A DNA stretch of 64,000 nucleotides from Accumulibacter sp. (GCF_024235715.1 NZ_JACKLW010000012.1); one strand, 5' to 3'. Counted from the stretch's first letter, positions 19,017-23,793 are shown. Translations and numbers: made by a program. The notes: generated by a model from the letters alone, not told the origin.

Positions 19017-19775
19017 TCAGGCGCGCCCGCGGCGGCGCGCGCCGACACCAGCCAGCAGAGCGAGGCCGAACAGCGCCAGTGTCGCCGGCTCGGGAACCTC
19101 GTTTCCGCCCGGACCACCACCGCCACCGCCACCTGGGAAGCGCGGTTCGCTCAAACTCGTCCCGTACTGAAAGAACACGTTGCTGATCTGTGTCAGGCTG
19201 AAGCCGCTGGCGGGAGTCAGCAGGAAGGTCACCGAATGCTTGGTAATCTCGTTGTTGGCAATGCCGCCGTTGCCGGTGGCCAGATTATCCCCGGCCGAAG
19301 TCAGCCCGTATTGCAGCCCGTTGACCGCGACCGGGCCGGCAAGGTTGGGTCCGTTGAAGTTGCCGCTACCGAAAATGCCCAAGCCGGTGCTCGAAATCCC
19401 GGCATTGACTGTCGGCAGGCTGCCACTGGCGACAGGTGCGTAGGCCCACTCGCCACCCACGTTCGTCCCGGCACCGTTCTGCAGAACCCCATTCTTGTAT
19501 GTGGGGCCATCGGATAGTGCCGACAGCGGCGACAACTGGCTGGCGCCCCCCGTTCCCGATACATTGAAGAAGACGCCCGTCAGCACGTCAACTGGAACCA
19601 ACACATCGGCGAGGCTCGTATTGTCCAGCCGGACCTGCAGTTTGCCGGCGACGATGTCAAAGCTGACAGACGCTGCGCGGCTCCCCGAGGTGCCGCTGAA
19701 GCTGACCGACGCCGATGCCGGGAAAACAACCGCCAGCAAAGGCAGGACGACCATGGCTGCTCGCAGTGCTTTCAT
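19017..19775 (-). CDS. PEP-CTERM exosortase-sorted surface protein (N-terminal region resembles the XDD4-type domain)
   Basis: Signal peptide, Gly linker GGGGGGPGG, C-terminal VPEPATLALFGLALLAGVGARRRGRA (PEP + TM + basic tail). Confidence 0.92.
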   Translation of the reverse strand: MKALRAAMVVLPLLAVVFPASASVSFSGTSGSRAASVSFDIVAGKLQVRLDNTSLADVLVPVDVLTGVFFNVSGTGGASQLSPLSALSDGPTYKNGVLQNGAGTNVGGEWAYAPVASGSLPTVNAGISSTGLGIFGSGNFNGPNLAGPVAVNGLQYGLTSAGDNLATGNGGIANNEITKHSVTFLLTPASGFSLTQISNVFFQYGTSLSEPRFPGGGGGGGPGGNEVPEPATLALFGLALLAGVGARRRGRA

Positions 19776-19813: not shown

Positions 19814-19829
19814 AGCAATATTCGGGCCA
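19814..19829 (-). promoter_or_regulatory. Sigma-54 -24/-12 promoter of the PEP-CTERM gene
   Basis: Minus strand TGGCCCGAATATTGCT = GG-N10-GC, about 40 nt upstream of the ATG. Confidence 0.8.
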
Positions 19830-20125: not shown

Positions 20126-21961
20126 CTACCTGACAACGACGATGATCGACTTGGACGCGGAGTTGCCCGCGGCGTCCCTGGCCGTCAAGGTGAGGAGATG
20201 ATTGCCCGCTGACGCTTTTTTCGTGTTCCAGCGTGCGCTCAGGGTGCCGCCACTCACCGTCGCGTTCAGTTCGCCGTCGATAAAAAGCGATTGCGTGACG
20301 CCATTGACGCCGAGATTGTCGTCCGCCACGCCCTCAATGCGCACGACCTTGCTCACCGTGGCGCCATTCGCTGGCGCGCTGAAGACGACGGTCGGCGGCA
20401 CCGTGTCCGCTGCCGCCGCGCCGTTGGCGACGGTTACGCTTACCGGCTGCGAGCCGGTATAGTTGCCCGCCGCATCGTAGGCATAGGCAATCAGCGTCGC
20501 CGGCCCGTCGGCGATTGCGGTAGTGTCCCAACTGAAACCGTGCGGCGCCGTCGTATCGGTGGCGTACTTGCTGCCGTTGACGACCAGGTCCACGCTGACC
20601 ACGCCGACGTCGTCACTGGCCGCGACATCGACCGCTACCAGACCGGCGACCTTTCCGCCGGCAGGCGCGGAGATGGCAACCGTCGGCGCCTGCGTGTCGA
20701 AAGCCGTCGTCGTGGCCGCGGCCAGGGTGGCCTGCGCAGCATCGACGCGCCCCGCGCCGTAGTAGTCGTCCCTGCCTGCCGTGCCCAGATCGACCGAGGT
20801 CGAATAAAGGAGACTTTGCACCTGATCGGCGGGAAGCGCCGGGTTGGCGGCCATCATCAGCGCAGCCGTGCCGGCAACGATCGGACTCGCGAAAGACGTC
20901 CCTGACCACTGACCGTAGCCACCACCACGACTGGTCGTCAGGACGCTCTGACCGGGCGCCGCTATGTCCACGTAAGCGCCGTAGTTGGACCACGAGGTTC
21001 TCGCGTCACTGCTGTTGGTTGCCGACACGACGACCAGGTTGCCGGAGGAAGCGACGGTCTGCAGGGTGCCGCTGTTACCGGCACAGATCACGGTCAGCCC
21101 GCCCTTGCTCTTCAGGTACTGCGCGGCACTTTCGACGGTGGAACTGCTGGCGACGTTTTCGTAGCTGATGTTGGCGACACGGGCGCCATGATCCGCCGCC
21201 CAGGTCAGGCCGCTGGCCATGGTGCTGAAGTAGCCGTAGCCGCTGGGGTCAGAGATGCGCACGGGCATGATCTTCGAGCCGTAAGCTACCGATGCGACGC
21301 CGATGGCGTTGTTGCCGGATGCGGCCGCGGTACCGGCCACGGCCGTGCCGTGGCCATGCACGTCCGAGGAGTCACCATTGTTGTCGTAGCTGTTCCAGCC
21401 TGGGACCATCTGCGCGAACAGGTCGGGATGGCTGGCGTCGACACCAGTATCCAGGATGGCGATGATCACTTCGCTGCCGGTAGAGGTGTCCCACGCCGCC
21501 TGAGCGCCGACCTTGGCGAGGTGCCACTGGCTGGCCAGGGATGGGTCGTCGGTCGTCCCGCCCGGGGCGAGGATTTGGTCCTGTTCGACGAACTTGAAGT
21601 GCTTGTTCTTGGCCAGCAGCGCCGCGACGGCCTTGCTATTGGCTTGTGCAGGCAATTGCACCACATGCACGTTGATTCCGTTGATCTTGCCGACCCGCTT
21701 GCCGCCATGCGGTTTGAGGATCTTGTCCACCTCGACATCGCTCAGGCCGGCACGCTGCTGGATCAGGAGCCGTCCAGGCACGAAGTCGAGCGGCGGTGGA
21801 CCGGCAAGCGGAGACGCGGCAAACGCCGGGGCGATGACGATCCCGAGGGCCAGGGCAAGCAGCCGGCCAGCGGAAACGATCTGTGACGACTTGCCGCCAG
21901 AATCAGCCCGAATGCATGCACTCGTACCGATGGCAAGGAAGAGGGATTGGCTGGTCAACAT
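20126..21961 (-). CDS. Secreted S8 subtilisin-like serine protease with two C-terminal Ig-like domains
   Basis: Triad ILDTG / HGTAVAG / GTSFASP, with prodomain and signal-like segment. Two repeats start DTQAPTVAISAP / DTVPPTVVFSAP and contain AYDAAGN / ARDAAGN. GGAG precedes the ATG. Confidence 0.92.
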   Translation of the reverse strand: MLTSQSLFLAIGTSACIRADSGGKSSQIVSAGRLLALALGIVIAPAFAASPLAGPPPLDFVPGRLLIQQRAGLSDVEVDKILKPHGGKRVGKINGINVHVVQLPAQANSKAVAALLAKNKHFKFVEQDQILAPGGTTDDPSLASQWHLAKVGAQAAWDTSTGSEVIIAILDTGVDASHPDLFAQMVPGWNSYDNNGDSSDVHGHGTAVAGTAAASGNNAIGVASVAYGSKIMPVRISDPSGYGYFSTMASGLTWAADHGARVANISYENVASSSTVESAAQYLKSKGGLTVICAGNSGTLQTVASSGNLVVVSATNSSDARTSWSNYGAYVDIAAPGQSVLTTSRGGGYGQWSGTSFASPIVAGTAALMMAANPALPADQVQSLLYSTSVDLGTAGRDDYYGAGRVDAAQATLAAATTTAFDTQAPTVAISAPAGGKVAGLVAVDVAASDDVGVVSVDLVVNGSKYATDTTAPHGFSWDTTAIADGPATLIAYAYDAAGNYTGSQPVSVTVANGAAAADTVPPTVVFSAPANGATVSKVVRIEGVADDNLGVNGVTQSLFIDGELNATVSGGTLSARWNTKKASAGNHLLTLTARDAAGNSASKSIIVVVR

Positions 21962-22104
21962 TTCGGGTCTCCGTTATGTTGGCCTGAACTGAGCACAGCA
22001 TGGGAGCCTGTTGACCAGAGTCGCCGGAAAGGAACGGGCAGCCACTACAGATGGCCACATCCCTGACGACGCGCCATGCGCGCCGCCTGACGAACACTAC
22101 TCGC

Positions 22105-22189
22105 ACTTGGCAGTCCCGCTGTCTTGGCCGAAGCCGTCAGACCGGTCACTTTGCGCCCCAGGCTTTCGCTTGGTTTGCCTTTTTCAAGT
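22105..22189 (-). ncRNA. c-di-GMP-I (GEMM) riboswitch
   Basis: Minus strand ACTTGAAAAAGGCAAACCAAGC-GAAA-GCCTGGGGCGCAAAGTGACCGGTCTGACGGCTTCGGCCAAGACAGCGGGACTGCCAAGT. It shows GGCAAACC, a GAAA tetraloop, GGCGCAAAG, CCGG...GCGGG and the closing ACTTG/CAAGT stem, 144 nt upstream of the S8 start. Confidence 0.85.
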
Positions 22190-22582
22190 CAGTATCAACT
22201 TTGAACTCTGCGGATGCCCGGAGTGCTCGGCTAGCCACCCCGCACGCATTGCGAGAAGAATCTACGGCAGAGTACGCGCGGATGTCAAGGAGACGGGACA
22301 CTTCGCGCTTGGAACTTCTTCTTGCGTCCGGGCACTTCGACACCGAGAAAATTCAGATGACATCCATTCTTTCGCGCGTAGCAGCGACGATTAAGGGCTG
22401 GCAGGTGGGTGGGTCAAATGGCCTGGGACTGGCGTTGCACCGGTCGAGCACGATGCCTCCGCGAGACTCGCGACAGGCAGAAGTGGAAGGCACTCCACCC
22501 GCAGGCCAGATATCGCCTCGTCCCTGCCCATGCCCAGCGTGGATGTGGCTCTGGAGAGCTGGCGCGGTGCGCGATCGAGCGC

Positions 22583-23431
22583 TCAGGAAGCCCGAGAAAC
22601 GACGGGCCTGGAGGGGTCGCTGCACCATTCGCTCCAGGAACCGGCATAGAGGCGTGCTCCGGACAGCCCGGCGATTTCCATCGCCAGCAGGTTGTGGCAG
22701 GCGGTAACCCCCGAGCCGCAGCTCATCACGGCCTTTTGCGGCTCGATCCCGGCGAGCAGCGCCAGGAACTCGCGACGCAGTTCCGCGGCGGGGCGGAAGC
22801 AGCCGTCGCTGTCGAGGTTATCGCGAAAGAAACGGTTGCGGGCGCCGGGAATATGGCCACCGACCGGGTCGAGCGTCTCGTTCTCGCCGCGAAAGCGATC
22901 AGGGCTGCGCGCGTCGATCAGGCAGAACTGGCCGTGTTGCACGTCGGCCAGCACTTCCTGGGTGCTGGCCACCCCCTCGCGAGGAGCGCCTGCGAAAGTC
23001 GTGGCAACGACTTCCGGCAATTCGGTCGTCAGCGGCCGGCCCTCGGCCGACCAGCGGTCGATACCGCCGTCGAGAACGGCGACGTGCTCGTGACCGAGCC
23101 AGCGCAACAGCCACCACAGGCGAACGGCAATCATACCGCCGGAATCGTCGTAGGCGACTACCTGTGTTTCCGGCGAGACCCCGGCCGCGCCAAGCCTGGC
23201 GGCAAGCAGCAGCGGATCCGGCAGGGGATGGCGACCGTTGCTGCCGTTCATCGGCCCCGACAGGTCGCGATCGAGGTGCAGAAAGCTGGCGCCCGGCAGG
23301 TGCCCGGCCGCGTAAGCCCTGGCACCCGCTTCCGGATCGTTGAGTTGATGCCGACAGTCAAAAACGCGCCAGCCAGGATCGCTGAGATGATCGGCCAGAA
23401 GGGCGCCGCTGACCAGCGTCGAAAAGCTCAC
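22583..23431 (-). CDS. sseA: 3-mercaptopyruvate/thiosulfate sulfurtransferase (tandem rhodanese)
   Basis: GHLPGA, DARSPDRFRGE, GHIPGA, active site CGSGVTAC and LYAGSWSEW. GTG start at 23431 coupled to the upstream stop. Confidence 0.9.
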   Translation of the reverse strand: MSFSTLVSGALLADHLSDPGWRVFDCRHQLNDPEAGARAYAAGHLPGASFLHLDRDLSGPMNGSNGRHPLPDPLLLAARLGAAGVSPETQVVAYDDSGGMIAVRLWWLLRWLGHEHVAVLDGGIDRWSAEGRPLTTELPEVVATTFAGAPREGVASTQEVLADVQHGQFCLIDARSPDRFRGENETLDPVGGHIPGARNRFFRDNLDSDGCFRPAAELRREFLALLAGIEPQKAVMSCGSGVTACHNLLAMEIAGLSGARLYAGSWSEWCSDPSRPVVSRAS

Positions 23432-23793
23432 GCCTTCCCCTCCCCTACCTCTTCGAGCAGCCATGATCGTGCTTCGAGATCTTCGTCGAAGACGCGCATC
23501 TCGGCGTCAACGAAGATTTGCGACAACCAGGCGCTCCACGCCACCCACTGGCTTTCGGTGACCACAGCAATGCGACTGAAATCGTGGGCGTGCGCACGCG
23601 AGAAGACGATGTCTTCCCACGCGACATCGAGCGTGAAATCAGCCATCTCGCGCAGGTCGAAAAGGAGATCGACCGGTCCCTCGAACTGAATCACGTAGTT
23701 AACGGCGTTTTCGAACTCCTGATAATCGGCGAGCGTGAATTCCGCGTAAACCGTGACCTCGACGCGCCCAGGCTGGTTTTCGATGACTATCAT
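23428..23793 (-). CDS. STAS/SEC14 (SpoIIAA-like) domain protein
   Basis: 121 aa; LLFDLREMADFTL..AWED...RIAVVT...W...F...EMRVF...ARSWL. Confidence 0.75.
   Translation of the reverse strand: MIVIENQPGRVEVTVYAEFTLADYQEFENAVNYVIQFEGPVDLLFDLREMADFTLDVAWEDIVFSRAHAHDFSRIAVVTESQWVAWSAWLSQIFVDAEMRVFDEDLEARSWLLEEVGEGKA

Follow-up and report, generated by a model that had tools for sequence, protein, structure and literature searches.

Subtilases are listed among the gene families preceded by GEMM elements (Weinberg et al., 2007, NAR 35:4809, Table 2; PMC1950547), and the 3′ side of the P2 helix is the usual GEMM switching strand, which competes with a terminator and thereby gives an ON switch (Weinberg et al., 2007; PMC1950547). 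In Clostridioides difficile, a class I OFF switch governs the protease PPEP-1/ZmpI (CD2830), which is made at low cyclic di-GMP (c-di-GMP), cuts adhesins off the cell and frees cells from surfaces (PMC11477304). Here we analyze a stretch of 64,000 nucleotides (nt) from Accumulibacter sp. (GCF_024235715.1, NZ_JACKLW010000012.1; hereafter the window), the minus strand of which carries a c-di-GMP-I (GEMM-I) aptamer in the mRNA leader of a gene for an S8 protease. A mechanism that resembles the one we propose for this leader is that of the Escherichia coli thiM thiamine pyrophosphate (TPP) riboswitch, a translational OFF switch in which an anti-Shine-Dalgarno (anti-SD) segment is held by an aptamer strand until the ligand releases it onto the Shine-Dalgarno (SD) sequence.

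Taken together, our analysis favors, with moderate confidence, a canonical c-di-GMP riboswitch with a translational platform that would be OFF at high c-di-GMP. The parts of this reading differ in strength. The identity of the aptamer as a canonical c-di-GMP-I riboswitch is almost certain, and control is probably translational, via a predicted helix that sequesters the ribosome site, as judged from base complementarity and modeled folding, while the direction of switching (OFF) is the least certain inference of all.

Identity of the Aptamer and its Ligand Pocket

The single match above a gathering score in the window (cmscan, Rfam) lies at 22105–22188 on the minus strand and covers the full model without truncation; a permissive rescan of 21800–22500 against Rfam returned nothing further of note. 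The label that cmscan gives to this match is RF03167 (c-di-GMP-I-GGC), with 62.3 bits against a gathering score of 59 and an E-value of 2.5e-12, and a search of the genome with RF01051 scored the same aptamer at 66.8 bits against a cut-off of 35, over model positions 1–87. The full GEMM-I pattern that the original prediction had read on the minus strand is thus a complete-model match, and the covariance check with RF01051 that it had proposed returned a score well above threshold. Its limits of 22105 and 22189 proved exact, the ends being formed by P1, a perfect 5-bp helix between ACUUG (22185–22189) and CAAGU (22105–22109). The other parts are a GC/GC P1a, a P1b capped by a GAAA tetraloop, and a P2 whose tip is capped by UUCG.

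The fold was also evaluated across 49 homologous protease leaders, namely this one, its paralogue in the same genome and 47 relatives. In these, 94.6% of the cells are paired, two-sided changes occur in 10 of the 18 pairs, and the covariation score is 0.357, compared with 0.158 in shuffles (none of 500 shuffles scored as high); controls in which the structure was slid along the alignment were at most 43% paired. It is beyond reasonable doubt that the site is a complete GEMM-I aptamer and a member of the c-di-GMP-I clan.

Placing the Vc2 numbering on the Rfam structure line located the pocket bases equivalent to G20, A47, and C92, which we take, from the structure literature behind that numbering, to be the ligand-contacting positions. 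The original prediction had picked out the base before GCAAACC as a G equivalent to G20, and a C as the 3′ pocket base; these are the bases found at 22179 and 22110, respectively. The same combination of G, A, and C is present in 49 of the 49 homologous aptamers, and such a canonical G20/A47/C92 pocket predicts c-di-GMP as the ligand. A reading as a sensor of cyclic AMP-GMP (c-AMP-GMP; GEMM-Ib, the Geobacter type) was rejected, the G20-equivalent base at 22179 being G and not A.

The cmscan label raises the alternative that the element belongs to the c-di-GMP-I-GGC variant class, with a ligand specificity unlike that of canonical c-di-GMP-I, since RF03167 survives clan competition, exceeds its gathering score and has a lower E-value than RF01051. 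However, the G column that distinguishes this class is A here and in all 49 homologues. We take the middle letter of the name "GGC" to denote the G that replaces A at the A47-equivalent pocket position; in the RF03167 alignment, GACGC-G-AAg of the model (...GACGCGAAg...) faces GGCGC-A-AAG of the sequence (...GGCGCAAAG...), and the match line is blank at the A47 column. RF01051 also gives more bits than RF03167, and the score of the latter is owed to the common P2 architecture rather than to the pocket. Because the diagnostic base is A, a canonical c-di-GMP sensor, as originally predicted, is a better call than RF03167, the variant label is not followed, and we regard membership in the variant class as highly improbable. 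The variant family is reported because, of the members of a clan, cmscan prints just the one whose E-value is best, and RF03167 wins on these aptamers because its P2 resembles theirs and its E-value calibration is more favorable. The RF03167 label also falls on the canonical G/A/C aptamers of loci L036 and L037, and more distant homologues (L038–L040) are labeled RF01051. Rfam clan competition can therefore mislabel a canonical G/A/C aptamer as "GGC", an annotation trap when variant riboswitches are counted, and the pocket bases should be read before altered specificity is claimed.

The aptamer has the GAAA tetraloop on P1b. In P2, the receptor region is CUGAC...CAAGA in aptamers of the Accumulibacter clade and CUAAG...UAUG, of the 11-nt type, in most protease-leader homologues. 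The former motif (P2, 22123–22140 on the minus strand) was seen in the Accumulibacter-clade aptamers and in that of one metagenome-assembled genome of the Burkholderiales (L091). It may be a variant GAAA-tetraloop receptor.

A Predicted Translational Platform

The start codon, ATG at 21961, lies 143 nt past the aptamer, and GGAG stands 7 nt before it. Between aptamer and gene, the platform comprises two hairpins (A and B), a conserved block that begins at 22018, and then the SD and start codon. Two predicted sets of pairings compete for this block. On the one hand, CUGGUCAACAGGCUCC (22003–22018) pairs, in predicted folds, with the SD and start codon: its part CUGGUCAACA (22009–22018) is perfectly complementary to UGUUGACCAG (21951–21960), a segment that takes in all but the first base of the start codon and the eight bases beyond it, and the adjoining GG-CUCC pairs with GGAG-a-CC, which contains the SD. 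On the other hand, GGCUCCCAUGCUG (21996–22008) and UCAGGCC (21981–21987) are complementary to the two strands of P2, such that GGC-UCCC-au-GCUG (21996–22008) pairs with CAGC-GGGA-cu-GCC (22109–22121), and UCAGGCC pairs with GGUCUGA (22137–22143) in nested order with the first pairing. For GGCUCC(C) (22002–22008), the partners GGAG-a-CC of the SD and GGGA-cu-GCC of the 3′ aptamer strand are mutually exclusive alternatives. The proposed switching strand, CAGCGGGACUGCC, is purine-rich and resembles the SD region.

Predicted folding of this leader follows the same alternatives. The unconstrained minimum free energy (MFE) structure, at −93.6 kcal/mol, is the anti-aptamer conformer, whereas the MFE structure with the aptamer enforced (−88.8 kcal/mol) contains the SD/AUG helix, and ligand binding could bridge the gap of 4.8 kcal/mol between these modeled conformers. 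The helix over the ribosome-binding site (RBS) has a probability of 0.03 when the aptamer is free and of 0.96 when it is locked. Opening positions −14 to +5 costs 8.1 kcal/mol with the aptamer free, 12.9 with the leader alone, and 11.0 ± 1.4 with shuffled aptamers, where the leader alone serves as a proxy for the locked aptamer and the shuffles preserve dinucleotides. In prefix folding, the native aptamer is dominant only until the block is transcribed. When the seven Accumulibacter leaders are folded jointly, RNAalifold independently predicts the same anti-aptamer pairing.

Based on these pairings, we propose the following mechanism, a point on which the original prediction had not committed itself. 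The aptamer would be transcribed from its own sigma-70-type promoter in the leader of the protease mRNA. When it is locked by c-di-GMP, the block CUGGUCAACA-GG-CUCC (22003–22018) would be free to form a long helix with the SD GGAG and with the start codon and next bases, AUGUUGACCAG (21951–21961), so that ribosomes could not load. Without ligand, the weak 5-bp P1 would open, and the P2 strands GGUCUGA and CAGCGGGACUGCC would be captured by UCAGGCC and GGCUCCC-au-GCUG, respectively; this capture would consume the anti-SD, so that nothing more than a weak local hairpin would cover the ribosome site. The 3′ strand of the aptamer would thus imitate the SD and retain the anti-SD in the absence of ligand, and c-di-GMP would move the anti-SD onto the real SD. 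The protease would be made at low c-di-GMP, in dispersed or motile cells, and shut down at high c-di-GMP, in flocs or biofilm.

Table 1. Features of the leader and of the gene it precedes, with positions counted from the first letter of the window.
Feature	Position	Strand	Remarks
Sigma-70-type promoter TTGACA-18 nt-TAGATT	22259..22288	-	10 of 12 consensus matches
5′-leader hairpin CGGGGUG...CACUCCG	22219..22242	-	between predicted transcription start and aptamer
c-di-GMP-I (GEMM-I) aptamer	22105..22189	-	P1, P1a, P1b, P2; RF01051 and RF03167 scores; covariation
G20-equivalent pocket base, G	22179	-	unpaired, directly 5′ of P1a GC
A47-equivalent pocket base, A	22152	-	base after P1a GC; conserved G in the RF03167 model
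C92-equivalent pocket base, C	22110	-	unpaired, between P2 3′ strand and P1 3′ strand
Proposed switching strand CAGCGGGACUGCC	22109..22121	-	P2 3′ strand, C92-equivalent and first base of P1 3′ strand
Hairpin A, GGCGGCGCGC-AUG-GCGCGUCGUC	22065..22087	-	10 bp; spacer element
Hairpin B	22030..22064	-	6 + 8 bp; 3′ side is a U-rich tract resembling a terminator tail
Anti-RBS/anti-aptamer block (predicted)	21981..22018	-	best-conserved part of the leader in 7 Accumulibacter copies; hairpins A and B vary
Shine-Dalgarno GGAG	21969..21972	-	7 nt before start; kept in 6 of 7 Accumulibacter leaders
S8 protease gene	20126..21961	-	611 aa; signal peptide, fervidolysin-like N-prodomain, S8 catalytic domain, two Big_7 immunoglobulin (Ig)-like domains

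Group-Level Evidence and Direction of Switching

The energy of opening the ribosome site separates the aptamer states across the 49 leaders as well. The mean for positions −14 to +5 is 8.6 kcal/mol with the aptamer free, 13.6 with the leader alone, and 11.6 with shuffled aptamers; the locked state exceeds the free one by more than 1 kcal/mol in 46 of the 49, and shuffled aptamers exceed the native one by as much in 40 of the 49 (Wilcoxon p = 1.8e-11, among leaders that are related). Blocks that are complementary to their own P2 strands also occur, in different spelling, in the Contendobacter, Zoogloeaceae, and Thauera groups, where they keep the same nested order and lie 35–60 nt before the start. 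For example, the blocks of the Contendobacter group are UCCCCCGC and UCGGUGGU, and its SD region GGGGAUCGC copies GGGAUCGC of the aptamer; those of the Thauera group are GCAAUCC and GGCCGG, within an RBS helix of about 20 bp. Eight of the 49 leaders contain an exact 7-mer complement to their own GGANNGC class, compared with 3 of 392 for foreign classes (Fisher p = 1.7e-6).

Several results weigh against this reading. Two-sided covariation was not found in the RBS helix of the seven Accumulibacter leaders, which vary too little, and the outer 4 bp of this helix occur in this sequence only. With 5 of 30 shuffled aptamers, too, the RBS helix of this sequence is lost, and the ligand-free conformer keeps the start codon in a small AACAU/AUGUU hairpin. 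The per-base unpaired probability of the ribosome site did not discriminate between free, absent, and shuffled aptamers (0.35, 0.31, and 0.33, respectively) and was replaced by the energy of opening the whole ribosome site. Pairing of the whole aptamer with the leader (RNAduplex) was no better than in shuffles (mean z −0.24; 0.01 for this sequence), and a targeted test of nested complementarity gave a group mean z of −0.88 and +0.18 for this sequence, the latter because the best-scoring sites picked in the leader were not the conserved block. When the binding of the P2 3′ core to the leader was compared between its own class and foreign classes, the energy difference of −0.53 kcal/mol was not significant (p = 0.14–0.24). 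Further, the 49 leaders are phylogenetically related, such that p-values overstate their independence, and equilibrium folding leaves out co-transcriptional kinetics and tertiary energy.

The same aptamer and ligand might instead form an ON switch, in which c-di-GMP raises protease synthesis, for example when the folded aptamer removes an occluding strand, and the protease would then be associated with flocs or process the matrix. Of the GEMM-I elements described from proteobacteria and from Geobacter, many switch ON, as does the arrangement in which a terminator competes with P2 (Weinberg et al., 2007; PMC1950547). The gene adjoins PEP-CTERM/PrsT floc-formation genes, the P2 5′ strand GGUCU is complementary to AGACC just past the SD, through which a ligand-free aptamer could touch the SD region, and equilibrium folding can mislead. 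However, the 3′ switching strand (GGGACUGCC) resembles the SD and would therefore compete for the anti-SD rather than hide the SD. Both the RBS-helix probabilities of this leader and the lower opening energy with a free aptamer in 46 of the 49 also point the other way, and we consider an ON switch rather unlikely, if the more serious of the competing models of control.

Hairpins A and B and the Terminator Question

Hairpin A is present in all conformers, and its stem letters vary among orthologues with pairing largely kept. The basal stem of hairpin B is AGGGAU/GUUCCU here, GGAAGG/CCUUCC in genome G005, and GGGGC/GCCCC in G035, where no U tract follows.

The original prediction had seen no obvious U-tract terminator in the platform, and this was borne out. 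A terminator scan returned one weak site, 22038–22058 plus CCGTTCCTTT, but this corresponds to the upper part of hairpin B, and what looks like a U-rich tail belongs to the 3′ strand of the basal stem of that longer hairpin, a stem that co-varies. Terminator-like sites, all weak, occur in only 6 of the 49 leaders, none with a run of four or more U. An intrinsic terminator was rejected as the platform on these grounds, and we do not regard the platform as a classical attenuator.

Control might still be mainly transcriptional, through hairpin B as a weak intrinsic terminator or through Rho acting in the long leader, with the RBS helix being secondary. Apart from the site flagged by the scan, two orthologues have a cleaner hairpin followed by AUUUCCUU or AUUCCUUU, Rho could load on the 143-nt leader, which contains C and is not translated, and translational repression is often accompanied by Rho-dependent polarity. 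These points are countered by the placement of the U-rich tract within a co-varying stem, by its absence in G035, and by the rarity of such sites among the leaders. Moreover, hairpin B does not overlap the aptamer, and thus nothing couples it to ligand binding. A mainly transcriptional switch is therefore improbable, and translational control through the RBS helix remains the preferred model.

The Regulated Gene, its Promoter, and its Neighborhood

The original prediction had placed the aptamer in the leader of an S8 protease, and the next start codon indeed opens a 611-aa open reading frame (ORF) matching Peptidase_S8 (8e-51), Big_7 (9e-23), and Fervidolysin_NPro-like (4e-8). The translation contains subtilisin-type motifs with the catalytic Asp, His, and Ser, and the closest solved relatives are thermitase and Ak.1 protease. 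The product is predicted to be an exported or secreted subtilisin-type protease.

A promoter scan of 21700–22600 found a single promoter-like site (shuffles give 0.1), and −35 boxes of the TTGACA/TTGACG type with TA-rich −10 boxes occur at equal distance in the orthologous and paralogous leaders. Transcription is predicted to start about 60 nt upstream of the aptamer, for a leader of about 290 nt. At the place of the 5′-leader hairpin, orthologues have GGGAGU...ACUCCC or GGAGGU...ACUUCC, so that pairing seems to be kept with different letters, as read from the sequences. This hairpin is possibly a stabilizing 5′ stem-loop. Its 3′ arm holds CUCC, another word that resembles an anti-SD.

Upstream on the same strand lies a rhodanese gene (22583–23464). 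Downstream, on the minus strand, lies a gene for an XDD4-family exosortase-dependent PEP-CTERM protein (19017–19775), and the convergent gene encodes PrsT. The XDD4 gene is separated from the protease gene by 350 nt, and a sigma-54-like −24/−12 element, TGGCCC-N5-TTGCT, is present at 19814–19829 on the minus strand, about 40 nt upstream of it. Such a sigma-54-type element before XDD4 fits PrsR-type control of PEP-CTERM genes. Among the fetched loci, most of which extend at most 700 nt downstream, XDD4 adjoins the protease gene of just one relative (L126). An operon of the protease with XDD4 is unlikely given the 350-nt gap, the separate sigma-54-like element and the adjacency in just one relative among these fetched loci, and the protease is treated as the sole gene under riboswitch control. 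The link to biofilm signaling that the original prediction had drawn for the block holds for the protease only; the PEP-CTERM gene has its own sigma-54-like promoter and adjoins the protease gene of one relative among the fetched loci, most of which reach at most 700 nt downstream. The riboswitch-protease unit, moreover, is found in numerous other genomes and once more in the present one.

Distribution of the Aptamer-Protease Unit

The genome, a metagenome-assembled one, has exactly two GEMM-I aptamers. The second (G000:C10:123140-123223; locus L001, 1501–1584, plus strand; RF01051, 68.7 bits) precedes a paralogous S8 protease of 61% identity and has the same leader plan, and its anti-SD/SD helix AGGCUCC/GGAGUCU has a G-U pair where the window copy has a G.A mismatch. 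Orthologous aptamer-leader-protease units are present in four other Accumulibacter species, with protein identities of 73–84%. In a fifth species (L045; G007:C121:51303-51387 plus about 400 nt downstream), the aptamer is 95% identical and the leader is kept, but the protease ORF is gone; the SD is mutated from GGAG to GAAA, and a type IV pilin-like gene (N-terminus FTLIEIMIVV...) follows. This looks like a decaying riboswitch unit.

Such units can therefore decay, and a high-scoring aptamer might in principle be a decaying or non-functional relic. In the window, however, the unit is intact from promoter and aptamer through anti-SD block and SD to the start codon and catalytic motifs, and it is conserved in the orthologues and in the paralogue, which makes a relic extremely improbable.

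A search of a species-representative genome collection with a profile of the protease yielded 80 loci, in which upstream aptamers were sought with a covariance model built from ten aptamers. An aptamer lies upstream on the coding strand in 49 of these 80, in genera that include Thauera, Aromatoleum, Propionivibrio, Nitrosospira, Nitrosomonas, Rubrivivax, and Contendobacter, mostly beta-proteobacteria. By contrast, no aptamer was found within 700 nt upstream of the protease (52–55% identity) in Roseateles/Mitsuaria (L077, L078, L080, L082–L087, L089, L101, and L103), and therefore the riboswitch link was lost, or never gained, in this part of the protease family.

Other GEMM-I aptamers in Accumulibacter and neighboring genera stand before DUF1631 (L017, L022, L030, and L031), a serralysin-type M10 protease with RTX repeats (L034), a reprolysin-like metalloprotease (L014), and a second S8 family of 29% identity (L011, L013, and L026). 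Judging from these gene annotations, the GEMM-I regulon in Accumulibacter and its neighbors appears to be dominated by exported proteases, together with DUF1631, a family without an assigned function.

Possible Implications for Flocs and Granules

The aptamer class, the ligand logic, and the subtilase association are already published, and the element is not new in kind. Our contribution is a worked and testable model of a terminator-less platform, in which the anti-SD would double as an anti-aptamer strand, with group-level support in 49 leaders. The analysis further shows the riboswitch to accompany a single protease family across numerous beta-proteobacteria of environmental and industrial importance, among them Ca. 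Accumulibacter, a polyphosphate accumulator. The literature on c-di-GMP control of floc or granule formation in Ca. Accumulibacter is sparse, and none of the papers that a full-text search returned for Accumulibacter together with c-di-GMP deals with a riboswitch.

A broader possibility, which we offer as speculation and think doubtful as a whole, is that one exported S8 protease family is wired to c-di-GMP by a common translational OFF platform and acts as a floc-dispersal enzyme. Such a dispersal role would span beta-proteobacteria that form flocs and granules in wastewater (Accumulibacter, Thauera, Zoogloeaceae, Propionivibrio, and Nitrosomonas/Nitrosospira) as well as the gamma-proteobacterial Competibacteraceae. 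If true, the anti-SD would be the decoy partner of the aptamer P2 strand in this common platform, the protease would trim floc-matrix protein (e.g., PEP-CTERM/exosortase surface proteins) when c-di-GMP falls, and the stability of flocs and granules in phosphorus-removal sludge would be under the direct control of c-di-GMP via an RNA switch.

Comparison with Known Systems

The element shares with Vc2, the RF01051 prototype from the tfoY leader of Vibrio cholerae, the helices P1, GC/GC P1a, GAAA-capped P1b, and P2, the AAA-type linker, the G20/A47/C92-equivalent bases, the position in a 5′ leader, and, as predicted here, switching through the 3′ side of P2. It differs from Vc2 and RF01051 in the receptor region of P2, which is CUGAC...CAAGA and not the 11-nt motif CUAAG...UAUG of most protease-leader homologues, and in its long (143 nt) platform, which has two spacer hairpins and no terminator and is predicted to be a translational OFF switch. 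With RF03167 and the Geobacter c-AMP-GMP aptamers (GEMM-Ib), it has the clan and overall fold in common, and it passes the RF03167 gathering score, but the pocket changes that define these classes are absent, the A47 position being A rather than G and the G20 position G rather than A.

The resemblance to thiM is one of mechanism only: the predicted logic of anti-SD and anti-anti-SD likewise has three elements, whereas the aptamer and ligand are unrelated. The closest functional parallel is PPEP-1/ZmpI, in which OFF logic acts on a secreted protease, as predicted here. That system differs in being a transcriptional, terminator-based switch on a zinc metalloprotease with known adhesin substrates in a Firmicute host, whereas the window encodes an S8 serine protease for which translational control is predicted. 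Finally, the subtilase entry of Weinberg et al. (2007) came without a mechanism, and beta-proteobacteria were not named among the taxa in which GEMM is common; here, the association is followed through one protease family, in which it is found at 49 of 80 loci, mostly in beta-proteobacteria.

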